Below are positions 580 through 13,573 of a stretch of 15,168 nt of DNA, in pieces. Numbering within the stretch: the stretch's first letter is position 1; every line of letters begins with the position of its first letter. This DNA is from an archaeon (GTDB taxonomy: Archaea; EX4484-52; B79-G9). The notes below the pieces were generated by a model. The model had not been told where the DNA came from. It saw only the letters and a list, made by a program, of their open reading frames with translations, and ran no database searches. Position numbers and translations under genes: made by a program. Location: the NCBI GenBank assembly GCA_043813875.1, contig JBDRKP010000072.1, positions 1-15,168 on the forward strand, written 5' to 3'.

Positions 580-903
580 TATAGTCAAAGACATAACTTT
601 TTCATGGCATTTACATGCCAAGCTTTCGAAGACTGCGTCTTCAAAATGGACAAATGTCTTTGCCATATCATTAAAAATCGTTTTACGATTTTTATGATTC
701 AGCAAACTCGAGAGTTTGCCAGAATCCTTAAAATTGCTTTGCAATTTTAGGATTTCGAAAATTTATTCTAAATTTTCAATTTTCGAAATTCGAAATGAGT
801 GAAAATTTCGAAAATCCAGTGAATCTTTGAGATTCGCCAGGATAGATTAAGGTCTATTGGTTTTTGTTGACGTTTGGTCTTGAAGGTAACGACCTTAACT
901 ATA
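580..903. mobile_element. MITE-like structured element, copy 1 (324 bp including flanking TAs)
   Basis: TATAGT...ACTATA termini. Stems CAAAGACAT (586-594) / ATGTCTTTG (654-662) and TTAAGGTC (847-854) / GACCTTAA (891-898). Long matches to copy 2 at 2712-2916. Confidence 0.85.
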
Positions 904-975
904 ATTGTAATCAGCACCGGCGGCGCCAAAAATATAATGTCTTTTATTGTTGTTCTGATGCTGTCTTTTGTCATC

Positions 976-1034
976 GGCGCTCCAGGGTCTCATCCTCTTG
1001 AGATCATGCTCTGTGGACTGACTGACCTTGCGCT
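976..1034. repeat. About 60-bp intergenic repeat, uninterrupted copy (paralog of 2684-2713 joined to 2917-2946)
   Basis: Hand alignment gives 47/60 identical columns with one gap against the joined flanks of element copy 2. Confidence 0.75.
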
Positions 1035-1122
1035 TGAAGGATCTTATATGATTGTAGGGCATATGCATGGGCATTGAGGTTTTTTTGCGTTGACGGATTG
1101 TGTTTTTATGGGATATTGGTGA

Positions 1123-1192
1123 TTTTGATATCTGACTGTCAAAAATATGCATTATTTTGATAGTGACAGTCAAAAACTTTATATATTTTGAC
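1123..1192 (+). promoter_or_regulatory. Operator-like array of alternating TTTTGA/TCAAAA half-sites overlapping the TATA box of the ATPase gene
   Basis: Half-sites at 1123, 1139, 1155, 1170 and 1186. GTCAAAA-N10-TTTTGA occurs twice, 31 bp apart. TTTATATA at 1178-1185 is preceded by an A-rich BRE-like stretch; the ATG is at 1208. Confidence 0.6.
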
Positions 1193-1207
1193 ATTCTAAT
1201 ATCAGAT

Positions 1208-2515
1208 ATGGAAATACGGCAGATTACCGAGCAGAACCCGTGGTGGGAAGATAAGTCGCTGATAAACGAGGATGAAAAGGTAAAAGAGAGCGCTGCAAGA
1301 GTACATAAAATGGAGCACGTATTCACTGAAGAGAACAGCCTGATGATCGGGCCAAGGCAGGTCGGAAAAACCACGTTCATCAAGCTTCATATAAAAAATC
1401 TTATAGATAGTGGCGTTGACCCGAAAAGAACACTCTATTTTTCGTGCGAAGTCCTGAAGGATTTTAATGATATCCTTGAGATCGTAAGGTTTTCGGATAG
1501 TCTGATTACAGGCAAGAAATACATATTTTTCGATGAAGTGACTTTTGTTAAGGATTGGCAGAGGGCGATAAAATTTATCCTGGATTCGCCTTTGTCCAAG
1601 GACAAAATCATCCATGTCACGGGATCGTCTTCTGTCGAGCTTAAGAAAGAGACGTTCCCGGGAAGGAGGATAAAGACAATCCATTTTCTGCCGCTGTCGT
1701 TTAAGGATTACTGTATGGTCTTTGGAAGCGTGAACCTTAAAAAAGAGCTTTCGGATAGTGTCATGGCTTTGGATGCAGCAGAATTGAATGAAAAGGCAAA
1801 AAAACTGCTGTTCTTTTTTGGCGAGATAGATAAGCTGTTCAGCTCTTATATCTTTTGCGGCGGGTTTCCAAGGAGCATGTATGAGTATATGGAAAACGGG
1901 AAGATTCCCGACGAAACATATGACATCTACTGGAAGTGGATTGTCGCGGATATTGCCAAGATAGAGCGCAGCGAGCGGATAACCGTATCTACGCTTTTGG
2001 GTGTGCTGAAAAACTACGGTACGCGGTTCTCGCTCAATTCGATTGCAAAGGAGATGGAAGTCGGCTCTCATGTGACGATAAGGGAGTATCTTGAGATACT
2101 TGAAAACCTTTTTGTCCTGAGGAGCATGTTTCCGATAGACTTAAGGAAGAACACAGAGGATTTTGCAAGGATGAGAAAGGCATATTTCATTGATCCTTTT
2201 CTTTTCCGCGTATTTAAAAGGGAACTTACTAAAATGGATGTCAGGGATGAGGAAATCCCGCGCCTTGTCGAAGGGGTTGTTGCAGAGCATCTTTTGCGGA
2301 GATTCGATAAGGTATGCTACTATCAACAAAAAAAGGAAGTTGATTTTTACATCAACGGCACAGGCATCGAAGTGAAATGGCAGAACAGCGTCAAGAAAAG
2401 CGATTTTTATGCTGCTGAGCTTAAGAATAAGATATTGCTTTCGAAATCCTCTTTTGAGTTCTTCGAGGATGAGAAGATGCTTATTGCGCCAGTGAGCGTG
2501 TTTTTGCTGTTGTAG
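1208..2515 (+). CDS. AAA+ ATPase, AAA_14 + DUF4143 family, with a C-terminal PD-(D/E)xK-like motif
   Basis: N-terminal QNPWW, Walker A GPRQVGKTT, Walker B FFDEV, VTGSSS, GGFP, KAYFIDP, EVDF...IEVK. Start placed at ATG 1208 (MEIRQ), just downstream of the TATA box, rather than the ORF-track start at 1157. Confidence 0.9.
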   Translation: MEIRQITEQNPWWEDKSLINEDEKVKESAARVHKMEHVFTEENSLMIGPRQVGKTTFIKLHIKNLIDSGVDPKRTLYFSCEVLKDFNDILEIVRFSDSLITGKKYIFFDEVTFVKDWQRAIKFILDSPLSKDKIIHVTGSSSVELKKETFPGRRIKTIHFLPLSFKDYCMVFGSVNLKKELSDSVMALDAAELNEKAKKLLFFFGEIDKLFSSYIFCGGFPRSMYEYMENGKIPDETYDIYWKWIVADIAKIERSERITVSTLLGVLKNYGTRFSLNSIAKEMEVGSHVTIREYLEILENLFVLRSMFPIDLRKNTEDFARMRKAYFIDPFLFRVFKRELTKMDVRDEEIPRLVEGVVAEHLLRRFDKVCYYQQKKEVDFYINGTGIEVKWQNSVKKSDFYAAELKNKILLSKSSFEFFEDEKMLIAPVSVFLLL

Positions 2516-2711
2516 GGTTTGGTTTTTGATCCTTGTTTTGATGGATATCGGTTTTCGATGGTTATTCATACTCTTAATGGTGATGTTGCATAACTGTGAT
2601 TAAATTTGACCGAATGATTGCGATTTAGCGTAAAGACGAACAAGACCTCTTCTGGCGAGATGAGCGCTTTTTCTATATTTTCAGGCGCTCTTGGGTTCCA
2701 GAATCTTGATA

Positions 2712-2916
2712 TATAGTAAACGTCATAACTTTTTCATGGCACTTAAATGCCAAGCTTTCGAGAGCTTCGCTCTCAAAATAGACAAATGACGTTTCCATAT
2801 CATTAAAAATCGTTTTACGATTTTTATGATCCAGCGAATCTGCGATTCGCCCGGATAGATTGATGTCTATCGGTTCATGGGTTATATTTGTCCAGCGAGT
2901 AACGACATCAACTATA
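2712..2916. mobile_element. MITE-like structured element, copy 2 (205 bp including flanking TAs)
   Basis: TATAGT (2712-2717)...ACTATA (2911-2916). Stems AAACGTCAT (2718-2726) / ATGACGTTT (2786-2794) and TTGATGTC (2860-2867) / GACATCAA (2904-2911). It interrupts a paralog of 976-1034. Confidence 0.88.
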
Positions 2917-3143
2917 ATGCTCTCGTGGACTGGTTGGCCTTGCGCTATTGAGCATGTGAATATCGATTCTGTCGTGTGTACTGGCTGCCTTGTGATGTAT
3001 GCGCGTTTTACTTTTCTCTTTTTGATACTTGAGGATATTGATTTTTGGGATTAGATGATTTTTTTGCGGCGGCCAGACATTAGATGTCATCCATGCTGGA
3101 AGACGGCGAGGGATATATATATTTATCGCGTTTTAGTTAATGT

Positions 3144-3965
3144 ATGCGCCAATCACGTGTGCTCAAGCTTGAGCGGCTGAAAAAGCATATTGAAAAGTCT
3201 GGCGATATGCTTATCGCGTTTTCAGGCGGTGTGGACAGCACGTTTCTTGCGAGGGTCGCGCATGACGTCCTCGGGGACAGGGCTGTTGCTGTCACTGCCA
3301 CGTCTTCGACGTATCCAAAGAGGGAGCTTCTTCTGGCAAAGAGGCTTGCGCGGGAAATAGGCATAAGGCATATGGTAATAGAGTCTCTGGAGACTGAAAT
3401 TCCGAGTTTCAGGGAGAACCTGCCTGACAGGTGCTATCATTGCAAGAAGGAGCTGTTCTCTAAGCTTAAAGAGGTCGCGCGGAAGGAAAATATAGGGAAT
3501 GTGGCGGATGCGACGAATGTTGATGATCTAACAGATCACAGGCCCGGGATGAGGGCGAAAGAGGAGCTTGGCGTGGTGAGCCCGCTTCTTGATGCAGGGA
3601 TGACCAAGGATGATATCAGGTCGCTTTCAAAGGATATGGGGCTTTATACGTGGAACAAGCCTGCTTTTGCGTGCCTTGCGTCACGGTTCCCATACGGCAC
3701 AGAGATAACAAGGGATCGGCTTTCTGTAGTAGAGCGCGCCGAGGATATAATCAGAGGACTTGGAGTTGTGCAGTCGCGCGTGAGGTATCATGGCAATATG
3801 GCAAGGATCGAGGTATGTCGCGCCGATATGCAGAAGGTGCTTGACAATTCAGGGAAGCTTGCGGAGGCTTTTTTGGAGCTTGGGTTCGTATATGTATGCC
3901 TTGATCTTATGGGCTACAGGACCGGCAGCATGAACGAGGTTTTGGAAAATGGAGAAGATGCTTAA
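3144..3965 (+). CDS. larE: ATP-dependent sulfur transferase LarE (NPN cofactor biosynthesis)
   Basis: PP-loop AFSGGVDS, RCYHCK, RPG, SPL, ACLASRFPYG, RVRYHG, ARIEV, DLMGYRTGSMN. Overlaps larB by 17 bp. Confidence 0.93.
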   Translation: MRQSRVLKLERLKKHIEKSGDMLIAFSGGVDSTFLARVAHDVLGDRAVAVTATSSTYPKRELLLAKRLAREIGIRHMVIESLETEIPSFRENLPDRCYHCKKELFSKLKEVARKENIGNVADATNVDDLTDHRPGMRAKEELGVVSPLLDAGMTKDDIRSLSKDMGLYTWNKPAFACLASRFPYGTEITRDRLSVVERAEDIIRGLGVVQSRVRYHGNMARIEVCRADMQKVLDNSGKLAEAFLELGFVYVCLDLMGYRTGSMNEVLENGEDA

Positions 3966-4677
3966 GGATTTCAAGGACGGGAAGATCACGCTAAAAGAGG
4001 TGATGGCGAGATTGAAATCCATGCCTTTTGAAGATGCGGGCTTTGCGAAGATAGATACGCACAGGACGCTCAGGAAAGGGTTTCCAGAGGTCATATACTG
4101 CAAGGGAAAGACTGTTGAGCAGGTAGTGAAGATATTTGAGATGATGGATGGGCACGGGTGCAATATACTTGCGACGAGGGCGGATGCGAAGACGTATGAG
4201 GCGGTGAAGAGAGCGCATCCTCGTGCCGTGTATAATGAGCATGCGGGGACGATCGTCATACAGAAGGAGGAGATGGAGCCGAAGAAGGGTTTGATCCTTG
4301 TCATCACTGCCGGGACGTCGGATATCCCTGTGGCGGAAGAGGCTGTGGTGACGGCTGAACTGATGGGCAACAGGGTCGAGAAGGTCTATGACGCCGGGGT
4401 GGCTGGTATACACCGGCTGCTGCATTATAAGGAGAAGATATTTGATGCGGGTGTCATAATCGTCGTCGCCGGCATGGAGGGGGCTTTGGCAAGCGTCGTC
4501 GGGGGGCTTGCGTCAGTGCCGATCATCGCTGTCCCGACCAGTGTCGGATACGGCGCGAGTTTCGAGGGTGTCGCTCCTTTGCTTACTATGCTCAATTGCT
4601 GCTCGCCGGGGGTCGCTGTCGTCAATATCGATAATGGATTCGGCGCGGGATATTTTGCGGGTATGATTAACAGGTGA
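3949..4677 (+). CDS. larB: NPN cofactor biosynthesis carboxylase/hydrolase LarB (PurE-like fold)
   Basis: AKIDTHRTLRKGFPEVIYC, AGTSDIPVAEEA, DAGVAGIHRL, AGMEGAL, PTSVGYG, NCCSPGVAVVNIDNGFGA. Confidence 0.95.
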   Translation: MEKMLKDFKDGKITLKEVMARLKSMPFEDAGFAKIDTHRTLRKGFPEVIYCKGKTVEQVVKIFEMMDGHGCNILATRADAKTYEAVKRAHPRAVYNEHAGTIVIQKEEMEPKKGLILVITAGTSDIPVAEEAVVTAELMGNRVEKVYDAGVAGIHRLLHYKEKIFDAGVIIVVAGMEGALASVVGGLASVPIIAVPTSVGYGASFEGVAPLLTMLNCCSPGVAVVNIDNGFGAGYFAGMINR

Positions 4678-4681
4678 ATTT

Positions 4682-5854
4682 ATGAAGGTAGCATATTTTG
4701 ATTGTTTTTCCGGTATCAGCGGTGATATGATCCTTGGAGCTCTTGTTGATCTCGGGGTTGATGTAGATTATCTTAAGGGTGAACTTATGAAGCTTGATGT
4801 CGGCGGCTATGAGATCTCATGGGAGAAGGTCGAGAAGGCGCATGTTTTTGGGACTAAGGTAGATGTTGCTGTCAGGGAGAAGCATGCGCACAGGGGGCTT
4901 TCTGATATCAATAAGCTGATCGATGACAGCAGGCTTGATGCTGATGTCAAGGTGTCTGCCAAGAAGATATTTCTCCGGCTCGCCGAGGCGGAGGGCAGGG
5001 TGCATAATATCGATGCGGATAAGGTGCATTTCCATGAGGTCGGGGCGATTGATTCGATCATCGATATCGTGGGCGCTGTTGTCGGGATCAGGAAGCTTGG
5101 TATCGGGAGGATATACTGCTCGTCACTCAATGTCGGCAGCGGGTCTGTCAAATGCGCGCACGGCGTGATGCCTGTGCCGGCGCCGGCGACAGCCGAGCTG
5201 ATAAAAGGGGTGCCGGTGTATTCAAGTGGTGTTGTTGGTGAGCTTGTTACGCCGACCGGTGCTGCTGTGATCACTACGCTTGCTGATTGTTTTGGCGGCA
5301 TGCCGAAGATGAGGGTCGATAAGGTGGGTTATGGCGCTGGTGATGCTGATTTTTTGCATCCGAACATGCTGAGGGTTTTTCTTGGTGAGGCGGACGGGGA
5401 CTATGATGCTGATGTCACTGATGTCATCGAGACCAATATAGATGACATGAGCCCGGAGTATTACGGGCATGTGACCGAGAGGCTGATGACTTCGGGGGCG
5501 CTTGATGTGTTCCTTACCAATATCATGATGAAAAACAACCGGCCGGCAATCAGGCTGAGTGTCATCTCGATGCCAGAGAGTACTGAGCGGCTTGTGGATA
5601 TCATATTCAGTGAGACCACGACTTTCGGGGTGAGGATATACGAGACGCGGCGACGGAAGCTGTCTGTCGAGAAGAAGGATGTGAAGACTAAGTACGGCGC
5701 GGTGAGCGTGAAGGTCGGAAGGGCGAATGGTGTGGTGAAGGTGGTGTCGCCTGAGTACAGGGACTGTAAGAAGGTGGCTGATGAGTATGGCGTTCCTTTG
5801 AGGGATGTGTATGATCTTGTTAAGGCGCTTGCGCGGGATGATATTGGGCTGTGA
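4682..5854 (+). CDS. larC: Nickel insertase (cyclometallase) LarC, single uninterrupted ORF
   Basis: FDCFSGISGDM, HFHEVGAIDSIIDI, CAHG..PVPAPAT, GELVTPTGAA, GYGAG, ETNIDD, ETTTFGVR, PEYRDC. An SD-like AGGTGA overlaps the larB stop. Confidence 0.95.
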   Translation: MKVAYFDCFSGISGDMILGALVDLGVDVDYLKGELMKLDVGGYEISWEKVEKAHVFGTKVDVAVREKHAHRGLSDINKLIDDSRLDADVKVSAKKIFLRLAEAEGRVHNIDADKVHFHEVGAIDSIIDIVGAVVGIRKLGIGRIYCSSLNVGSGSVKCAHGVMPVPAPATAELIKGVPVYSSGVVGELVTPTGAAVITTLADCFGGMPKMRVDKVGYGAGDADFLHPNMLRVFLGEADGDYDADVTDVIETNIDDMSPEYYGHVTERLMTSGALDVFLTNIMMKNNRPAIRLSVISMPESTERLVDIIFSETTTFGVRIYETRRRKLSVEKKDVKTKYGAVSVKVGRANGVVKVVSPEYRDCKKVADEYGVPLRDVYDLVKALARDDIGL

Positions 5855-5880
5855 TTGCTGTGTTTTGTTGTGTATGTCTT

Positions 5881-6224
5881 TTATGTTTTTCCTGAGTGGA
5901 TCATCAGGCTCCAGGCGTGGTCTCTGTCTTCTTTTAAGCAGTCCTTGAATGTGGTCTCTATGTCTTTTTTTCTTTTTTGCTATCTCTATCGTGTGAGCTG
6001 AGATGTCTGATGCGGTTACTGATGAGGGGCTATAGTCTCTTGTATCTCTTATGCGTCTCTTCCTGTGCCGCAGTCTGCGATGTAGATGTCTTTTCCTGTG
6101 ATGTCTATGCCGTGCTTTCTTGTGAGATTGCGCTTTTTCTTGCGCCCGACGATTGCGCCATCGTGATGAGGTTCCTGTCGTATTGTTCTGTGACTTTTCC
6201 TGTGTATTAGGGCATACTTATCAT
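5881..6224 (-). pseudogene. Degraded class I SAM-dependent methyltransferase
   Basis: Minus strand 6096-6052 reads GKDIYIADCGTGRDA (motif I-like) then TAA. In a different frame, 6019-5969 reads VTASDISAHTIEIAKKK (motif II-like). An upstream fragment YTGKVTEQYDR follows a stop. Boundaries are approximate. Confidence 0.65.
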
Positions 6225-6390
6225 TTCGTCCGTGTTGTTTTTATGTCTGGCTTAATGCGGATGAGGGCCCTTACAAAGATATATATATAGTGTCGGACAG
6301 AGAAGTGATTTGTGGACAGACGGATTACTTTGCCGTTGTAACGAGGGGACTGCAATCTGTCGCGTAGATATTATCTGATGCATGTGATGT

Positions 6391-8106
6391 ATGATGGACC
6401 TGTTTATTGAACTTAGTGCAATCCTGATCCTTACTGTCGTAATCTCCGGGCTGATGCGCCTTTTTAGGCAGCCTCTGATAATCGGCTATATACTTGCAGG
6501 GATAATCGCCGGACCTGTAGCCCTGAATGTCGTCAAGTCGCCTGAGACTTTTGCGGCTTTTGCCCAGATCGGTGTCGCTTTCCTTCTGTTCATGGTCGGG
6601 CTGAACCTGAATTACAGGGTCATCGGCGATGTCGGAAAAGCGTCCCTGTTTACGGGTGCTGGTCAGGTGTTCTTCACATCCCTGATCGGATTCAGCATAG
6701 GAAAGCTGCTTGGCTTTTCAAATATCATCTCGATATATCTTGCTGTTGCTGTCTCTTTCAGCAGCACGATAATAATCATGAAAGTGCTGTCGGATAAGAA
6801 GGAGCTTGAGACTCTTTATGGGAGAATCTCCATCGGGTTCCTGATAGTGCAGGATCTGATTGCCATATTCGTCCTGATGCTGATATCGTCCATCAGCGAA
6901 GGGGGCACCATAGGAGGCCTCTTTTTTGAATCAATAACCAAAGGCATGGGTTCGCTGATGATACTTGCCATCATCGCGATATATGTCTTTCCCAACCTGA
7001 CACAATTTATTGCAAAATCGCAGGAATTTCTTTTGCTTTTTTCTATCACATGGTGTTTTGCTGTCGCCTCGTTTTTCCATTACATGGGCTTTTCAATAGA
7101 GGCGGGCGCATTGCTTGCAGGCATAACTCTTTCGATGTCTCCCTATCATTACGAGATAAGCTCAAAGATGAAGCCGTTGCGCGATTTTTTCCTGATGCTG
7201 TTCTTTATCCTGCTGGGGTCGCAGATGATTTTTTCCAACTTCTACCAATATATAGTTCCTATCATTGTGTTCTCGCTGCTTATACTTATCGGGAATCCTC
7301 TGATCGTGATGACGCTGATGGGGGTGATGGGCTATACGAAGAGGAACAGCTTCCTTGCAGGACTTACGGTCGCGCAGGTGAGTGAATTCTCTATAATACT
7401 GATCGCACTGGGTGTCAAGACAGGACACCTGGCAAATGAGATAGTCTCCCTGATAACTGCCATAGCACTGATAACCATCGCAGGATCCACTTACATGATA
7501 CTCTATTCGCATAAGCTCTATATCTATCTTTCAAAGTATCTTTCATTGTTTGAGCGGAAAGGAAAAAAAATCGATGAGCATAAGTATCATGCGGATGATC
7601 ATTACGATATAATCCTTTTCGGGCATGATGAGATAGGGTTTGACATCACGACGTCGCTCAGGAAGATAAAGAAGAAGTTCCTTGTCATAGATTATGATCC
7701 TGGCGTCATAATCAACCTGTCCAAGCAGGGATACGACTGCAAATACGGCGACGTGAATGATACTGAGATGCTTGATGAGTTGAATTTCTCAAAAGTGAAG
7801 ATGGTCATCTCGACCATTCCTGCCATTGATACCAATCTGCTGCTTATCAGCAAGATAAGGGAGTCCAATAAGAATGTCATCATTGCTGTTGTCTCTCACC
7901 AGATTGACGGTGCTTTGAGGCTATATGATGAAGGCGCGACTTATGTCATAATGCCTCATTTCCTGGGCGGGCGCCATGCATCGACGCTGATTGAGGACAA
8001 TGAATTGAGTCTTGACAGGTTCCTCGAGGAGAAGGTCGCCCATATCGAGCATCTGAAATTGCGAAAAGAGGCAGGGCATGAACATCCTAAATATGAGGAC
8101 CATTAA
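6391..8106 (+). CDS. Cation:proton antiporter, CPA2/Kef family, with C-terminal RCK (TrkA-N) domain
   Basis: About 12-13 hydrophobic segments; GYILAGIIAGP, FSSTIIIMKVL, LIVQD, AGALLAG, LRDFFL, AQVSEFS; soluble C-terminus with VIDYDP, YGDVND, GATYVIMP. Confidence 0.92.
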   Translation: MMDLFIELSAILILTVVISGLMRLFRQPLIIGYILAGIIAGPVALNVVKSPETFAAFAQIGVAFLLFMVGLNLNYRVIGDVGKASLFTGAGQVFFTSLIGFSIGKLLGFSNIISIYLAVAVSFSSTIIIMKVLSDKKELETLYGRISIGFLIVQDLIAIFVLMLISSISEGGTIGGLFFESITKGMGSLMILAIIAIYVFPNLTQFIAKSQEFLLLFSITWCFAVASFFHYMGFSIEAGALLAGITLSMSPYHYEISSKMKPLRDFFLMLFFILLGSQMIFSNFYQYIVPIIVFSLLILIGNPLIVMTLMGVMGYTKRNSFLAGLTVAQVSEFSIILIALGVKTGHLANEIVSLITAIALITIAGSTYMILYSHKLYIYLSKYLSLFERKGKKIDEHKYHADDHYDIILFGHDEIGFDITTSLRKIKKKFLVIDYDPGVIINLSKQGYDCKYGDVNDTEMLDELNFSKVKMVISTIPAIDTNLLLISKIRESNKNVIIAVVSHQIDGALRLYDEGATYVIMPHFLGGRHASTLIEDNELSLDRFLEEKVAHIEHLKLRKEAGHEHPKYEDH

Positions 8107-8294
8107 TATAGTGAATTCAACAACTTTTGATGACTCATGGCACTAACTGTGCCAAGCTTTTGAGACAAGCTCAAAAATGTTGAATTCCCATATCTTTGCC
8201 AGTTCCTGGCAAGCTTTTGAGCTAAAGCTCAAAATAGTCAATTGAATTTGGTTTTCGGGTATGTTTTTGCTCAAAAGTAATTCAATTGACTATA
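8107..8294. mobile_element. MITE-like structured element, copy 3 (188 bp, more divergent)
   Basis: TATAGT (8107-8112)...ACTATA (8289-8294). GAATTCAACA (8113-8122) / TGTTGAATTC (8178-8187) is followed by CCATAT. Shares TCATGGCA..TGCCAAGCTTT with copies 1 and 2. Perfect 15-bp inverted repeat 8234-8248 / 8279-8293. Confidence 0.8.
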
Positions 8295-9262: not shown

Positions 9263-9381
9263 TGGGCCGAGGCAGATTTGAACTGCCGATCTTCGCCTTT
9301 CTTTCACGCAGGGAAAGAATTCAGCAAATTCTTATTTGCGTGATGTAAGGGCGACGTCATAACCAGCTAGACCACCGGCCC
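9263..9381 (-). tRNA. tRNA-Val(TAC) with a 45-nt intron (9299-9343) at position 37/38; CCA not encoded
   Basis: Minus strand: GGGCCGG-TG-GTCTAGCTGGTTATGAC-G-TCGCC-CT-TAC-A-[intron]-A-GGCGA-AGATC-GGCAG-TTCAAAT-CTGCC-TCGGCCC-A. All four arms pair; the intron helix is CACGCA/TGCGTG. Confidence 0.93.
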
Positions 9382-11744: not shown

Positions 11745-12329
11745 TTATATGTCCAGCCTGAAGCCGATGAGGTCCAGGGCGATTTTGAGGCCCGCGAGTT
11801 CTGATGTGATCTTTTTTTCTGCGAATGTTATCAGTATGATGTCGCCTTTTTTTGGGTTCAGCTGTTCTTTTATTGCTTTCGGGGGTTCTATGTCTATCTC
11901 TTTTTTGCCTATGAGTTCCAGGTTGTCATATTGCGCCATGCTGATGAGGCCGTCTGCGCCCATCTTTATCGCGCTGTCACGGAAGGTTACTGCGCCTGAG
12001 TCTGTTATGTTTTTTTCCGGGTTTCTGATTGTGTATCCTATGTTGTTGTCGTGCATCGTGTATGTTCTTATGTCGAGGATTTTGGGGTATGATATGCGGC
12101 TGTTTATCGATCCTGTCAGCTCTTTTCCTTTTTTTGTGAGCGTGTGGCCTAGAGTTGTTGTTTTTATGAGCTTTTTTGATCTTAAGGTTTTTAGCATTGT
12201 CCGTGTTGTTGATTCGCTTAGCTCCAGTGCTTTTGAGAGGGCTGAGCGGCCTTTTGGTTTTTGGTTGAGGGATCTTATGAGCATGATCAGGTGGGTTTCG
12301 TTGTAGGCGCTGCGTTTGTCTATTTTGAT
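11745..12329 (-). CDS. Winged-HTH protein, DUF4443/DUF2111-like; start uncertain
   Basis: PKGRSALSKALELSESTTRTMLKTL (HTH), GHTLTKKG (wing), RDSAIKMGADG, GDIILITFAE. The frame is open up to 12335 but the first ATG is at 12284. Confidence 0.7.
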   Translation of the reverse strand: MKIDKRSAYNETHLIMLIRSLNQKPKGRSALSKALELSESTTRTMLKTLRSKKLIKTTTLGHTLTKKGKELTGSINSRISYPKILDIRTYTMHDNNIGYTIRNPEKNITDSGAVTFRDSAIKMGADGLISMAQYDNLELIGKKEIDIEPPKAIKEQLNPKKGDIILITFAEKKITSELAGLKIALDLIGFRLDI

Positions 12330-12455
12330 TTGAATCTACCTTTTTTTTGTTGAGTTTTTGTGTCTAGTGTAATCTATCTTTCTTTCGAAATCTTTATATA
12401 CTATGATGAGCATAAATGTTTGTATATTTGTAGTGACTTATAACTGAAGAGAGGG

Positions 12456-12854
12456 ATGTTCATGATGAGAGACAGGAAAGGTATGACGATGGCTCTTGGG
12501 GTCATTATTGCGATTGTTGTATTGATTGTTGTTGCGCTTGCGGTCATTGCTGTATCAAGCGGCAGTGTAAATATATTCGGTAGAGATACCGGCGAGGCGA
12601 CTGAGAAGTCGGGCAGTAAGATTGTTGGTACTGCTTCTTGTACTGACTGCGGTTGGCGAGAGACTAAAGGGGCGGCAAGTCCTAGTGAGTTGGATGATAT
12701 ATTACATCGTAATCCTTATTATTGTGAGGATGCTAGTGCAGTGCAATATTGCTGTGACGATATCACTAAGACGCATTGTATTGTGAAATCTAACTGTGGT
12801 AACTCCTTTGATGATCGTACTGCTGCTGAAACAGATTGTGTTCAGCCAGTTTAG
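12456..12854 (+). CDS. Type IV pilin-like protein with class III signal peptide and Cys-rich C-terminus (8 Cys)
   Basis: MFMMRDRKG|MTMALGVIIAIVVLIVVALAVI: basic leader ending KG followed by a hydrophobic helix. Paralog of 13304-13573. Confidence 0.78.
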   Translation: MFMMRDRKGMTMALGVIIAIVVLIVVALAVIAVSSGSVNIFGRDTGEATEKSGSKIVGTASCTDCGWRETKGAASPSELDDILHRNPYYCEDASAVQYCCDDITKTHCIVKSNCGNSFDDRTAAETDCVQPV

Positions 12855-12858
12855 TGGC

Positions 12859-12910
12859 ATAGCACATGATTATGTGCTATCTCATCTATCTTTTTTTATA
12901 ATTTTATTTT
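12859..12910 (+). terminator. Putative terminator after pilin-like gene 1
   Basis: Perfect 9-bp stem ATAGCACAT-GATT-ATGTGCTAT (12859-12880) just after the stop, followed by T-tracts. Confidence 0.5.
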
Positions 12911-12943
12911 TATATTGCAAATGTTTTTGATGAAGGTTGTCAT

Positions 12944-13264
12944 ATGGTAAAAAAGGTCATAGGAATTGCTTCGATTGTATATTTTGTCTATATGTTTTTG
13001 CCTGTGTTCAGTCTCGGGCTTTCTGCCCTTATCACACCTTATTTCCTTCTGGGGCTGGCGTATCTTGTTGCGGGGTATCTGCTTTTGACTGACGGAAACG
13101 GGATGATTATTGCTGTCTGTGGCGTTGCTATCCTTTTGCGTCTGTTCTTGAATACTCTCGATTTATCTATCATCCTTACGCTGTTTCTTAATCCTATAGC
13201 TCTTCTTGGAGATATACTTCTGCCGCTTTCTATGGTGTATTATGGGTTCTTTGCGAATGAGTAA
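12944..13264 (+). CDS. Small hydrophobic membrane protein (about 4 TM), function unknown
   Basis: 106-aa ORF, almost entirely hydrophobic, with SD-like AAGGT upstream. Confidence 0.75.
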   Translation: MVKKVIGIASIVYFVYMFLPVFSLGLSALITPYFLLGLAYLVAGYLLLTDGNGMIIAVCGVAILLRLFLNTLDLSIILTLFLNPIALLGDILLPLSMVYYGFFANE

Positions 13265-13303: not shown

Positions 13304-13573
13304 ATGTTTAGAACACATAGAAAAGGAATGCAAATGGCTCTTGGTGTGATTATCGCTATTGTTGTCCTGATTGTGGTCGCGCTTGCGGTGATTGTGATAG
13401 TTACCGGTAGCGTCGGGAATTTCGGTGCCAGTACCGGTGATGCTACGGAAAAAGCAGGTTTAGGTATCCAATGCCAGACTGAGCTTATTAATAAGTGCAG
13501 GGATATCAAGTCAGGGGATACATGTACGACATGCGACACAACTATATGTCCTACCGGCGTCAAGTGTCCTTGA
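13304..13573 (+). CDS. Type IV pilin-like protein with class III signal peptide and Cys-rich C-terminus (6 Cys)
   Basis: MFRTHRKG|MQMALGVIIAIVVLIVVALAVI; TATA-like TATATATA about 25 bp upstream. Confidence 0.78.
   Translation: MFRTHRKGMQMALGVIIAIVVLIVVALAVIVIVTGSVGNFGASTGDATEKAGLGIQCQTELINKCRDIKSGDTCTTCDTTICPTGVKCP

Follow-up and report, generated by a model that had tools for sequence, protein, structure and literature searches.

Short TA-flanked repeats of an archaeon with two end hairpins and a left end of IS630/Tc1 type

Introduction

Contig JBDRKP010000072.1 of the archaeal assembly GCA_043813875.1 (GTDB lineage EX4484-52; B79-G9) harbors three copies of a short repeat that begins with TATAGT and ends with ACTATA. 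We followed these repeats through the window, that is, the whole contig of 15,168 nucleotides (nt), through the source genome and through related and public genomes. [quoted passage not shown] Each element carries two end hairpins, with substitutions in their stems occurring as matched pairs, a trait uncommon among MITEs of this type. The repeats are mobile and duplicate a TA dinucleotide, the pairing within their stems exceeds chance, and comparison at the sequence level shows the left end to be homologous to the ends of autonomous IS630-family elements. We consider it probable that the repeats are derived from IS630/Tc1 elements and that foldback of their ends matters for the spread of elements as short as these. 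The complementarity of the stems may be due to selection on the folded form or to palindrome correction.

Architecture and fold of the element

The basic element of ~104 nt consists of two hairpins, each of which joins one terminal repeat to an internal complement. Its layout reads TATAGT-X(9)-AACTTTTTRGACTA-X'-CCATAT-AG(A)-Y(8)-loop(36)-Y'-CTATA. With a dot setting off the flanking TA, the left foldback half is TA·TAGT-X-(AACTTTTTRGACTA)-X'-CCATA and the right one TAGA-Y-(36-nt loop)-Y'-ACTA·TA. In the RNAalifold consensus of 14 basic copies, X pairs with X' and Y with Y', while the terminal TATAG pairs with C-ATATA of an apparent linker through five pairs, each kept in 14/14 sequences. The segments CCATAT and ATAG, which the first-pass annotation of this DNA had described as invariant linkers, are therefore not spacers: they base-pair with TATAG, the invariant sequence at the termini. 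Taken together, the two halves imply that each terminal repeat can be base-paired with its internal complement, either in a single strand or in an extruded cruciform. DNA folding of both strands predicts the same two hairpins, with z values of -3.3 to -4.9 relative to shuffled sequences.

In longer copies, additional small hairpin modules are confined to two sites, the left loop and the junction between CCATAT and AG. The left-loop units have the form CATGGCA..TGCCAAGCTTTYGA..TCAAAAT and occur one to three times per element; the junction modules are of the types CCTTAAAAATCG.., CCAGCGAATC..GGAT and TTCGAAAATTT... A further stem within the right loop was considered and dropped, as its pairings, read by eye, shift register between alignment rows. 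When left ends were picked in the source genome (G000) by the end motif alone, a choice that avoids any bias toward pairing and covers this one genome, 30/30 had a complement with at most one mismatch within 500 nt, and all 30 belong to MITEs.

Copy number and mobility

A BLASTN search of the source genome at word size 7 returned 155 alignments, and iterated nhmmer searches of its 1.64 Mb returned 25 left-module and 45 right-module matches. The family of copies 1 and 2 (family 1) amounts to ~45 copies in this genome, and the further copies that the first-pass annotation had proposed to collect do exist. A readable TA[TC]AGT start lies upstream of 36 of the 45 right modules; in the remaining nine the left tip is mutated or decayed, with the left arms still present. 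Element length ranges from 94 to 474 nt, and the basic form of 94-105 nt is represented by 16 copies. The 474-nt copy (G000:C13:19321-19794) holds in its left loop ~250 nt of foreign sequence with two ATACCCCGCAGCTTGCTGCG-like hairpins. Family 1 is present in 7/7 congeners with 8-22 matches each, many of which stop at contig ends, as expected of repeats. The remaining 33 genomes of the order that were searched yielded faint matches or none, with 1-5 matches each in six of them. A family-1 element also occurs on a contig of a Bacteroidota-labelled metagenome-assembled genome (MAG; L055), where its flanks are those of the copy at G000:C20:16535-16638; this record probably holds an archaeal contig.

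All listed copies follow the pattern TA·TAGT...ACTA·TA, and in the tandem pair at C53:31270-31499 a single TA is common to both elements. The 56 distinct insertion sites lie in AT-rich context, and 56/56 of those collected are flanked by TA on both sides, a count that reflects a collecting pattern which itself demanded TA. Empty sites were sought by blasting the flanks of relatives' copies against the source genome. The filled site in congener G007 (L002 1501-1701) reads ..CTGACACAGG-TA[TAGT..ACTA]TA-AAATCAAC.., and its empty counterpart at G000:C33, near 4164-4167, reads ..CTGACACG-TA-AAGCATC.., with the flank conserved on both sides. This single base-precise pair displays a clean TA duplication and supplies the empty allele for which the first-pass annotation had suggested looking; a second candidate (L156 versus G000:C57) is too diverged for base precision. 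None of the orthologous sites of the three window copies is readable in the congeners, where the flanking genes lie on separate contigs or have no DNA match. The repeats thus display the hallmarks of MITEs, being short, non-coding, dispersed in many copies, and present or absent between relatives.

Relationship to IS630/Tc1 insertion sequences

A scan of one genome per species (596 Gb) for the left-end motif TATAGTNNNNGNCATAACTTTTT yielded at least 99 stretches. Among the matches listed, the same family occurs in MAGs labelled Candidatus Nanohalarchaeota, Nanohaloarchaea or Aenigmatarchaeota. The same list contains other two-hairpin elements of ~100-126 nt from Aenigmatarchaeota (e.g., L058 and L028), hairpin-ended elements from Thermoplasmatota, and copies at contig ends from Thermoplasmata, Methanomassiliicoccales and one Methanosarcinales-labelled MAG; its single bacterial matches look like chance, of which ~17 or more would be expected by our arithmetic for 18 fixed bases in 596 Gb. 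In an Altiarchaeales-labelled record, five or more copies of a longer repeat (L020, L093, L098, L106 and L110) begin with TATAGTACCGGTCATAACTTTTTAGAC, and N masks part of several of them.

The contig-end type L117 contains at 1376-2470 an insertion sequence (IS) of 1095 bp between TA, with the ends TATAGTTATTGACATAACTTTTTG and, reverse-complemented, TATAGTGTAAGACATAACTATTTA. This IS codes for a helix-turn-helix (HTH) open reading frame (ORF) and a DDE_3 ORF with the motif PPYSPDLNPIE, and L118 is a second copy type like it. The MITE left end, TATAGT-nnnn-GnCATAACTTTTT, corresponds to the terminal repeat of these 1.1-kb IS630/Tc1-family ISs with DDE_3 transposases in Thermoplasmata MAGs. In family 1 the left-end core TAGT..G.CATAACTTTTT is conserved, and CATAACTTTTT starts the hairpin loop. 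Past TATAGT, 12-15 of 18 positions of the left ends agree with three of the four L117/L118 ends; agreement is 9-10 with the left end of L118 and 7-12 with other IS types. The earlier proposal that the ends are specified without fixed sequence is not supported as it stood, since the left end carries this conserved IS630-type core. The other part of the same proposal, a non-autonomous and IS630-related mobile element that duplicates TA, agrees with the duplication, the empty site and the match of the left end to DDE_3 ISs.

The comparison with full-length ISs also bears on the hairpins. Of the covarying left-stem positions, 7, 8 and 10 are among the four (7-10) at which the L117/L118 ends differ, also between both ends of a single IS. 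Position 12 likewise covaries in the MITE, yet it is A in all four L117/L118 ends. A complement of at least 7 nt within 150 nt was found at 0/6 ends of three full-length ISs, whereas the ends of MITE copy 2 score 9 and 8. Foldback is therefore a feature of the MITEs.

Other ISs of the genus and the order have different ends. The sole DDE_3 element of the source genome, at G000:C62 ~11870-13000 (L114 956-2070), is of IS630 type with ends unlike those of the MITEs, and its HTH and DDE ORFs overlap, as in frameshifted IS630 members. In congener G005 an intact gene of 346 aa has 37% identity to the DDE part of L117, and the same IS is found in G006 and G018. Its ends, TATAGCAA(T/A)CCAA.., loosely resemble those of family 2, described below. 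The ends of a further type in G018, TATAGTC(G/A)A(T/A)GCGA(T/C)AAATA.., come nearest to the right ends of family 3, at 10-12 of 18 positions.

Three families on one scaffold

The first-pass annotation had treated the three window copies as one element. The plan is indeed common to all three, but the copies do not form a single family: the arms of copy 3 differ in sequence, and with its kin it constitutes a family of its own (family 2) with its own copies. A third family has the arms AAAGGCAC/GTGCCTTT and (G)TCAAGGCA/TGCCTTGA(C). Plan, joints (CCATAT and GGATAG), junction modules and the right-loop motif TTGGTTTTTGG..TTTG(Y)(Y)CA are all the same in families 2 and 3, and family 3 also keeps the same inner modules. 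Either the ends and inner arms of one scaffold have changed in concert, or modules pass between the families.

The right-loop motif starting with TTGGTTTTTGG was also considered as a free-standing module. This was rejected: 25 of 33 pattern matches lie inside right modules, and the other eight look like low-complexity chance or one decayed copy. The inner modules were considered as independent elements too; most of their matches outside known elements turned out to be family-3 MITEs or generic A/T palindromes. On one 209-kb contig of an Aenigmatarchaeota-labelled MAG, L017, L080 and L092 are a 44-nt element composed solely of two TATAGT-type terminal repeats, which form one hairpin. This element may be the minimal form of such MITEs and resembles what each half of the basic element may formerly have been, and the C53 tandem pair suggests how two units of the 44-nt type could fuse.

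Covariation of the stems

Between copies 1 and 2, eight stem positions are altered on both sides (three in X, two in Y, three in the inner hairpin), all of them preserving Watson-Crick pairs, as originally counted. The prediction that the stems covary holds in larger alignments, the rows of which are related sequences. For the right stem, 95 distinct modules from the source genome, congeners and public MAGs were aligned, with three mis-extracted rows kept. In this set 91.2% of the cells are paired, compared to 80.7% in shuffles, and 101 cells are changed on both sides, compared to 29.8; either value was reached in 0/500 shuffles. Five of the eight pairs covary, and a control with slid partners gave at most 41.3% pairing.

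The left stem behaves alike. In 43 short-form modules, the stem and the four terminal pairs are 98.2% paired versus 89.5% in shuffles, with 41 two-sided cells versus 10.3 (0/500 shuffles in both cases), and the covarying pairs are at element positions 7, 8, 10 and 12. The 22 long-form modules have a fully (100%) paired left stem; nine pairs covary over all helices, including five of the ten pairs of the inner hairpin. A perfect 9-bp stem is present in 65 of 72 distinct left modules, and these 65 fall into 11 perfect haplotypes. All seven multi-copy left haplotypes are perfect, and all seven imperfect ones are single copies.

Kinship was controlled for by comparing nearest-neighbour pairs with the expectation for independently changing arms. 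For the right stem, 77 such pairs show 16 two-sided changes (2.6 expected) and 50 one-sided ones. For the left stem, the 36 short-form pairs show three (0.15 expected) and nine, and the 13 long-form pairs one (0.01 expected) and none, respectively.

Explanations for the paired stems

The explanation we favor combines IS630/Tc1 derivation with a role of foldback in the spread of very short elements. The MITEs would be moved in trans by a DDE_3 transposase, which would insert them at TA and duplicate it. On DNA too short to loop, foldback could bring the ends and the flanking TAs together; alternatively, it could present the element ends in folded form. Only lineages that keep the pairing would then leave many copies, and repeat positions that the transposase does not read (7-10 and 12) could drift freely as long as the inner arm follows.

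Several observations weigh against this explanation. The right ends match the IS repeat at 7-10 of 18 positions only. The long element with the same ends and a transposase gene, which the first-pass annotation had proposed to look for, is found as the DDE_3 ISs L117 and L118 in Thermoplasmata MAGs and was found neither in the source genome nor in the genus. A tblastn search of the source genome with the transposase piece of L054/L117 gave nothing below E=2.5. DDE_3 genes occur in 3/8 genomes of the genus and 7/42 of the order, all with other ends, and no matching transposase was found in these assemblies, which are 57-96% complete and in which ISs often stay unassembled. The right stems are perfect in just 45/95 modules and in 9/39 haplotypes, and mismatched right haplotypes, e.g., with an A.G mismatch at stem position 3, reach 4-6 copies each, so that the right side does not strictly depend on perfect pairing. 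In the nearest-neighbour pairs of the right stem, one-sided changes exceed two-sided ones. The left sets were collected by a rule of at most 2-3 mismatches to the complement, which leans toward pairing, and 64/75 of that collection have zero mismatches. Finally, both the formation of the folded form and its reading are hypothetical.

The same MITEs could carry stem changes without any function, if in these near-perfect palindromes replicative template switching, or short conversion tracts between copies, transfer a change from one arm to the other. We take such palindrome correction seriously, although we regard it as rather unlikely. The stems are palindromes with short loops, and certain right haplotypes resemble chimeras of two others, a sign of exchange between copies; four copies, for instance, have their 5' arm from TTAACGCC and their 3' arm from the TTAAGGTC type. 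Perfect compensation in 4 of 11 single-copy left haplotypes is likewise readily explained by one-step correction. The G.T versus A.C mismatches have no consistent strand bias (right stem 7 versus 30 cells, left 5 versus 1, inner 1 versus 11), and the gene-orientation bias is not significant (16 same versus 9 opposite in co-directional contexts), both of which count in favor of correction. However, correction leaves unexplained why foldback occurs in the MITEs but at 0/6 IS ends, and why the plan recurs in three families here and, among the matches listed, in distinct elements of Aenigmatarchaeota and Thermoplasmatota. Left stems with loops of 55-61 nt are as perfect (22/22) as those with 14-nt loops (35/43), and the right stem often shows one-sided decay; both observations likewise speak against correction.

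The favored IS630/Tc1 derivation can be carried one step further. We tentatively hypothesize, while finding it doubtful, that transposition of these very short elements needs folded ends, as extruded hairpins or in a single-stranded intermediate, and that the internal complement helps to define a working end. Such a requirement would account for three families that keep the scaffold, with its right-loop motif and inner modules, while their terminal repeats and inner arms diverged together. It would likewise account for the two-hairpin plan among the listed matches from other archaeal phyla and for full-length ISs that do without foldback.

A role at the RNA level, in which transcribed copies serve as terminator or stabilizer modules or as processed small RNAs and selection on the RNA keeps the stems, as has been suggested for ERIC, Correia and bcr1, seems improbable to us. 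It would fit the covariation and the stable folds, the T5 runs in both top-strand loops, and the intergenic position of the elements, often adjoining gene ends. Compensatory changes on the level of RNA have also been described for MITE-like repeats of bacteria (PMC3184786). Nevertheless, a permissive Rfam scan gave no match at the gathering score, the sole resemblances of the copies being to sX4 (23 bits versus 70) and rox1 (24.4 versus 58), so that the element is unrecognized by Rfam, as the first-pass annotation had supposed. The lack of a significant orientation bias, a wobble asymmetry that points to opposite strands in different stems, and copies that are not syntenic between congeners also speak against an RNA role. 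By crude ORF calls, the elements lie between divergent gene pairs in 15 cases and between convergent ones in 4. Four sequencing runs, one of them an RNA library, hold part of the window (a share of at most 0.16 each). Contigs from the RNA library cover 309-342 and 867-1059, the latter beginning 37 nt before the end of copy 1 and running 156 nt beyond it; they carry no information on strand or level and possibly stem from DNA.

Single-stranded DNA transposition by a Y1/HUH transposase that reads the end hairpins, in the manner of IS200/IS605, PATEs or REPINs, is very improbable: hairpins with compensatory changes are found at both ends, as in REPINs (PMC3116915), and a Y1_Tnp fragment exists at a contig end (G000:C84:3171-3335, L224), but the elements show a TA duplication and an empty site, unlike the IS200/IS605 type, which lacks target duplication, their ends are homologous to terminal repeats of DDE_3 ISs, and their hairpins take in the very termini. 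The fragment, the only one of its kind in the genome, adjoins an unrelated GC-rich hairpin (CCCGCCC..GGGCGGG) without the TATAGT motif, and a link to Y1 transposases was rejected; the HUH or single-stranded DNA enzyme suggested earlier is thus not indicated.

Relation to known repeats

Among known repeats, ERIC/MITEEc1 and Correia/NEMIS resemble the present elements in being small (~100-160 bp), non-coding, multi-copy and intergenic, with duplicated TA flanks and hairpin folds. They are bacterial, however, and have no sequence relation to the archaeal elements. In ERIC and Correia the two terminal repeats pair across the element, whereas here each pairs with its own internal complement to give two end hairpins, and extra hairpin modules come and go at two fixed sites. 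ERIC-type repeats are described with terminal inverted repeats, TA flanks and effects on mRNA (PMC3184786), and the name MITEEc1_IS630 is in use (PMC11602168).

Compensatory stem changes as such are known from REPINs (PMC3116915) and bcr1 (PMC3184786). Both are non-autonomous repeats with compensatory hairpin arms and other parts conserved, as here. REPINs differ in being tied to RAYT (Y1/HUH) transposases and in lacking TA duplication, and bcr1 in having 5-bp direct repeats, whereas the present elements have IS630-type terminal repeats. A likeness also exists to the archaeal full-length IS630/Tc1 ISs (L117, L118, G005/G006, G018), the ends of which begin TA·TAG(T/C) and sit between TA; in L117 and L118 the core G-A-CATAAC-T(T/A)TTT, too, agrees with that of the family-1 left end. 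These ISs differ in their length of ~1.1 kb, in coding for HTH and DDE_3, and in lacking end-proximal foldback.

The SM1-type elements of Sulfolobus are archaeal MITEs of ~80 bp that are linked to an IS630-family IS and target TA. As far as we know, neither two end hairpins nor covarying stems have been reported for these elements. An archaeal census lists 18,091 MITEs with very high density in DPANN genomes (PMC11602168). The accessible literature on DPANN MITEs and archaeal IS630 MITEs does not describe the family, which the sequence supplements of that census may hold. What is added here is the IS630 link of the family and the foldback that only the MITEs have.

Window copies and genome setting

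The source genome comprises 1.64 Mb in 90 contigs with 43.8% G+C, and the window is its contig C72. The three copies are present with the layout, arms and inner hairpins first reported (Table 1), and all are intergenic. Copy 1 begins 5 nt past the stop of the ORF at 215-574, and its left loop contains an inserted hairpin pair, CATGGCA..TGCCAAG and GAAGAC/GTCTTC. Copy 3 follows directly on the Na+/H+ exchanger gene, whose TAA stop is at 8104-8106; at its far side, the copy ends 28 nt from the stop of an opposite-strand pdxS-like gene.

Table 1. Positions of the repeat copies and their parts in the window, and of family-3 copies elsewhere in the source genome
Feature	Position (nt)	Strand	Details
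Copy 1, family-1 MITE	580-903	+	324 nt, TA on both flanks
Copy 1, left hairpin module	580-668	+	TATAGT 580-585, X 586-594, X' 654-662, CCATAT 663-668
Copy 1, extra hairpin modules	669-841	+	five modules
Copy 1, right hairpin module	842-903	+	ATAG-A 842-846, Y 847-854, 36-nt loop
Copy 1, right module, 3' side	Y' 891-898, CTATA 899-903	+	
Copy 2, family-1 MITE	2712-2916	+	205 nt
Copy 2, left module	2712-2800	+	X 2718-2726, X' 2786-2794
Copy 2, junction hairpin modules	2801-2854	+	two modules
Copy 2, right module	2855-2916	+	Y 2860-2867, Y' 2904-2911
Copy 3, family-2 MITE	8107-8294	+	188 nt
Copy 3, left parts	X 8113-8122, X' 8178-8187, CCATAT 8188-8193	+	
Copy 3, right parts	ATAG 8234-8237, Y 8238-8248, Y' 8279-8289, CTATA 8290-8294	+	
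Family-3 copies	C1:~19260, C5:~26700, C11:~11140, C26:~13400, C68:~1800, C77:~34200		

The gene content of the window is ordinary and includes an AAA_14 ATPase, LarE-, LarB- and LarC-like proteins, the Na+/H+ exchanger, PdxS, a DUF373 protein and a methionine aminopeptidase; as stated by the first-pass annotation, it includes no transposase. At 3144-5854 (+), genes for a PP-loop (LarE-like), an AIR-carboxylase-like (LarB-like) and a nickel-insertion (LarC) protein stand side by side, which looks like a lactate-racemase cofactor cluster. A tRNA at 9263-9381 (-) matches Rfam with 51.6 bits, while ARAGORN reports no tRNA in the window; as the match spans 119 nt against 71 positions of the Rfam model, the tRNA is probably intron-bearing, which, like the DUF373 gene, fits an archaeal genome. 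A direct repeat of 134 nt with 71% identity occurs at 12474-12607 and 13319-13452, within two small ORFs (12456-12854 and 13304-13573) without a Pfam match.

Conclusions

IS630/Tc1-type elements emerge as the likely source of these DPANN repeat families. The repeats break many contigs in MAGs of this kind, and knowledge of their ends and target aids assembly and annotation. If foldback is needed for movement, it would represent a structural requirement new to the cut-and-paste DDE transposons of the IS630/Tc1 family, and a simple answer to the problem of joining the ends of elements below the bending length of DNA. If it is not needed, the family would be a clear example from nature of palindrome correction imitating covariation of the RNA kind, and with it a warning for covariation-based discovery of RNAs.

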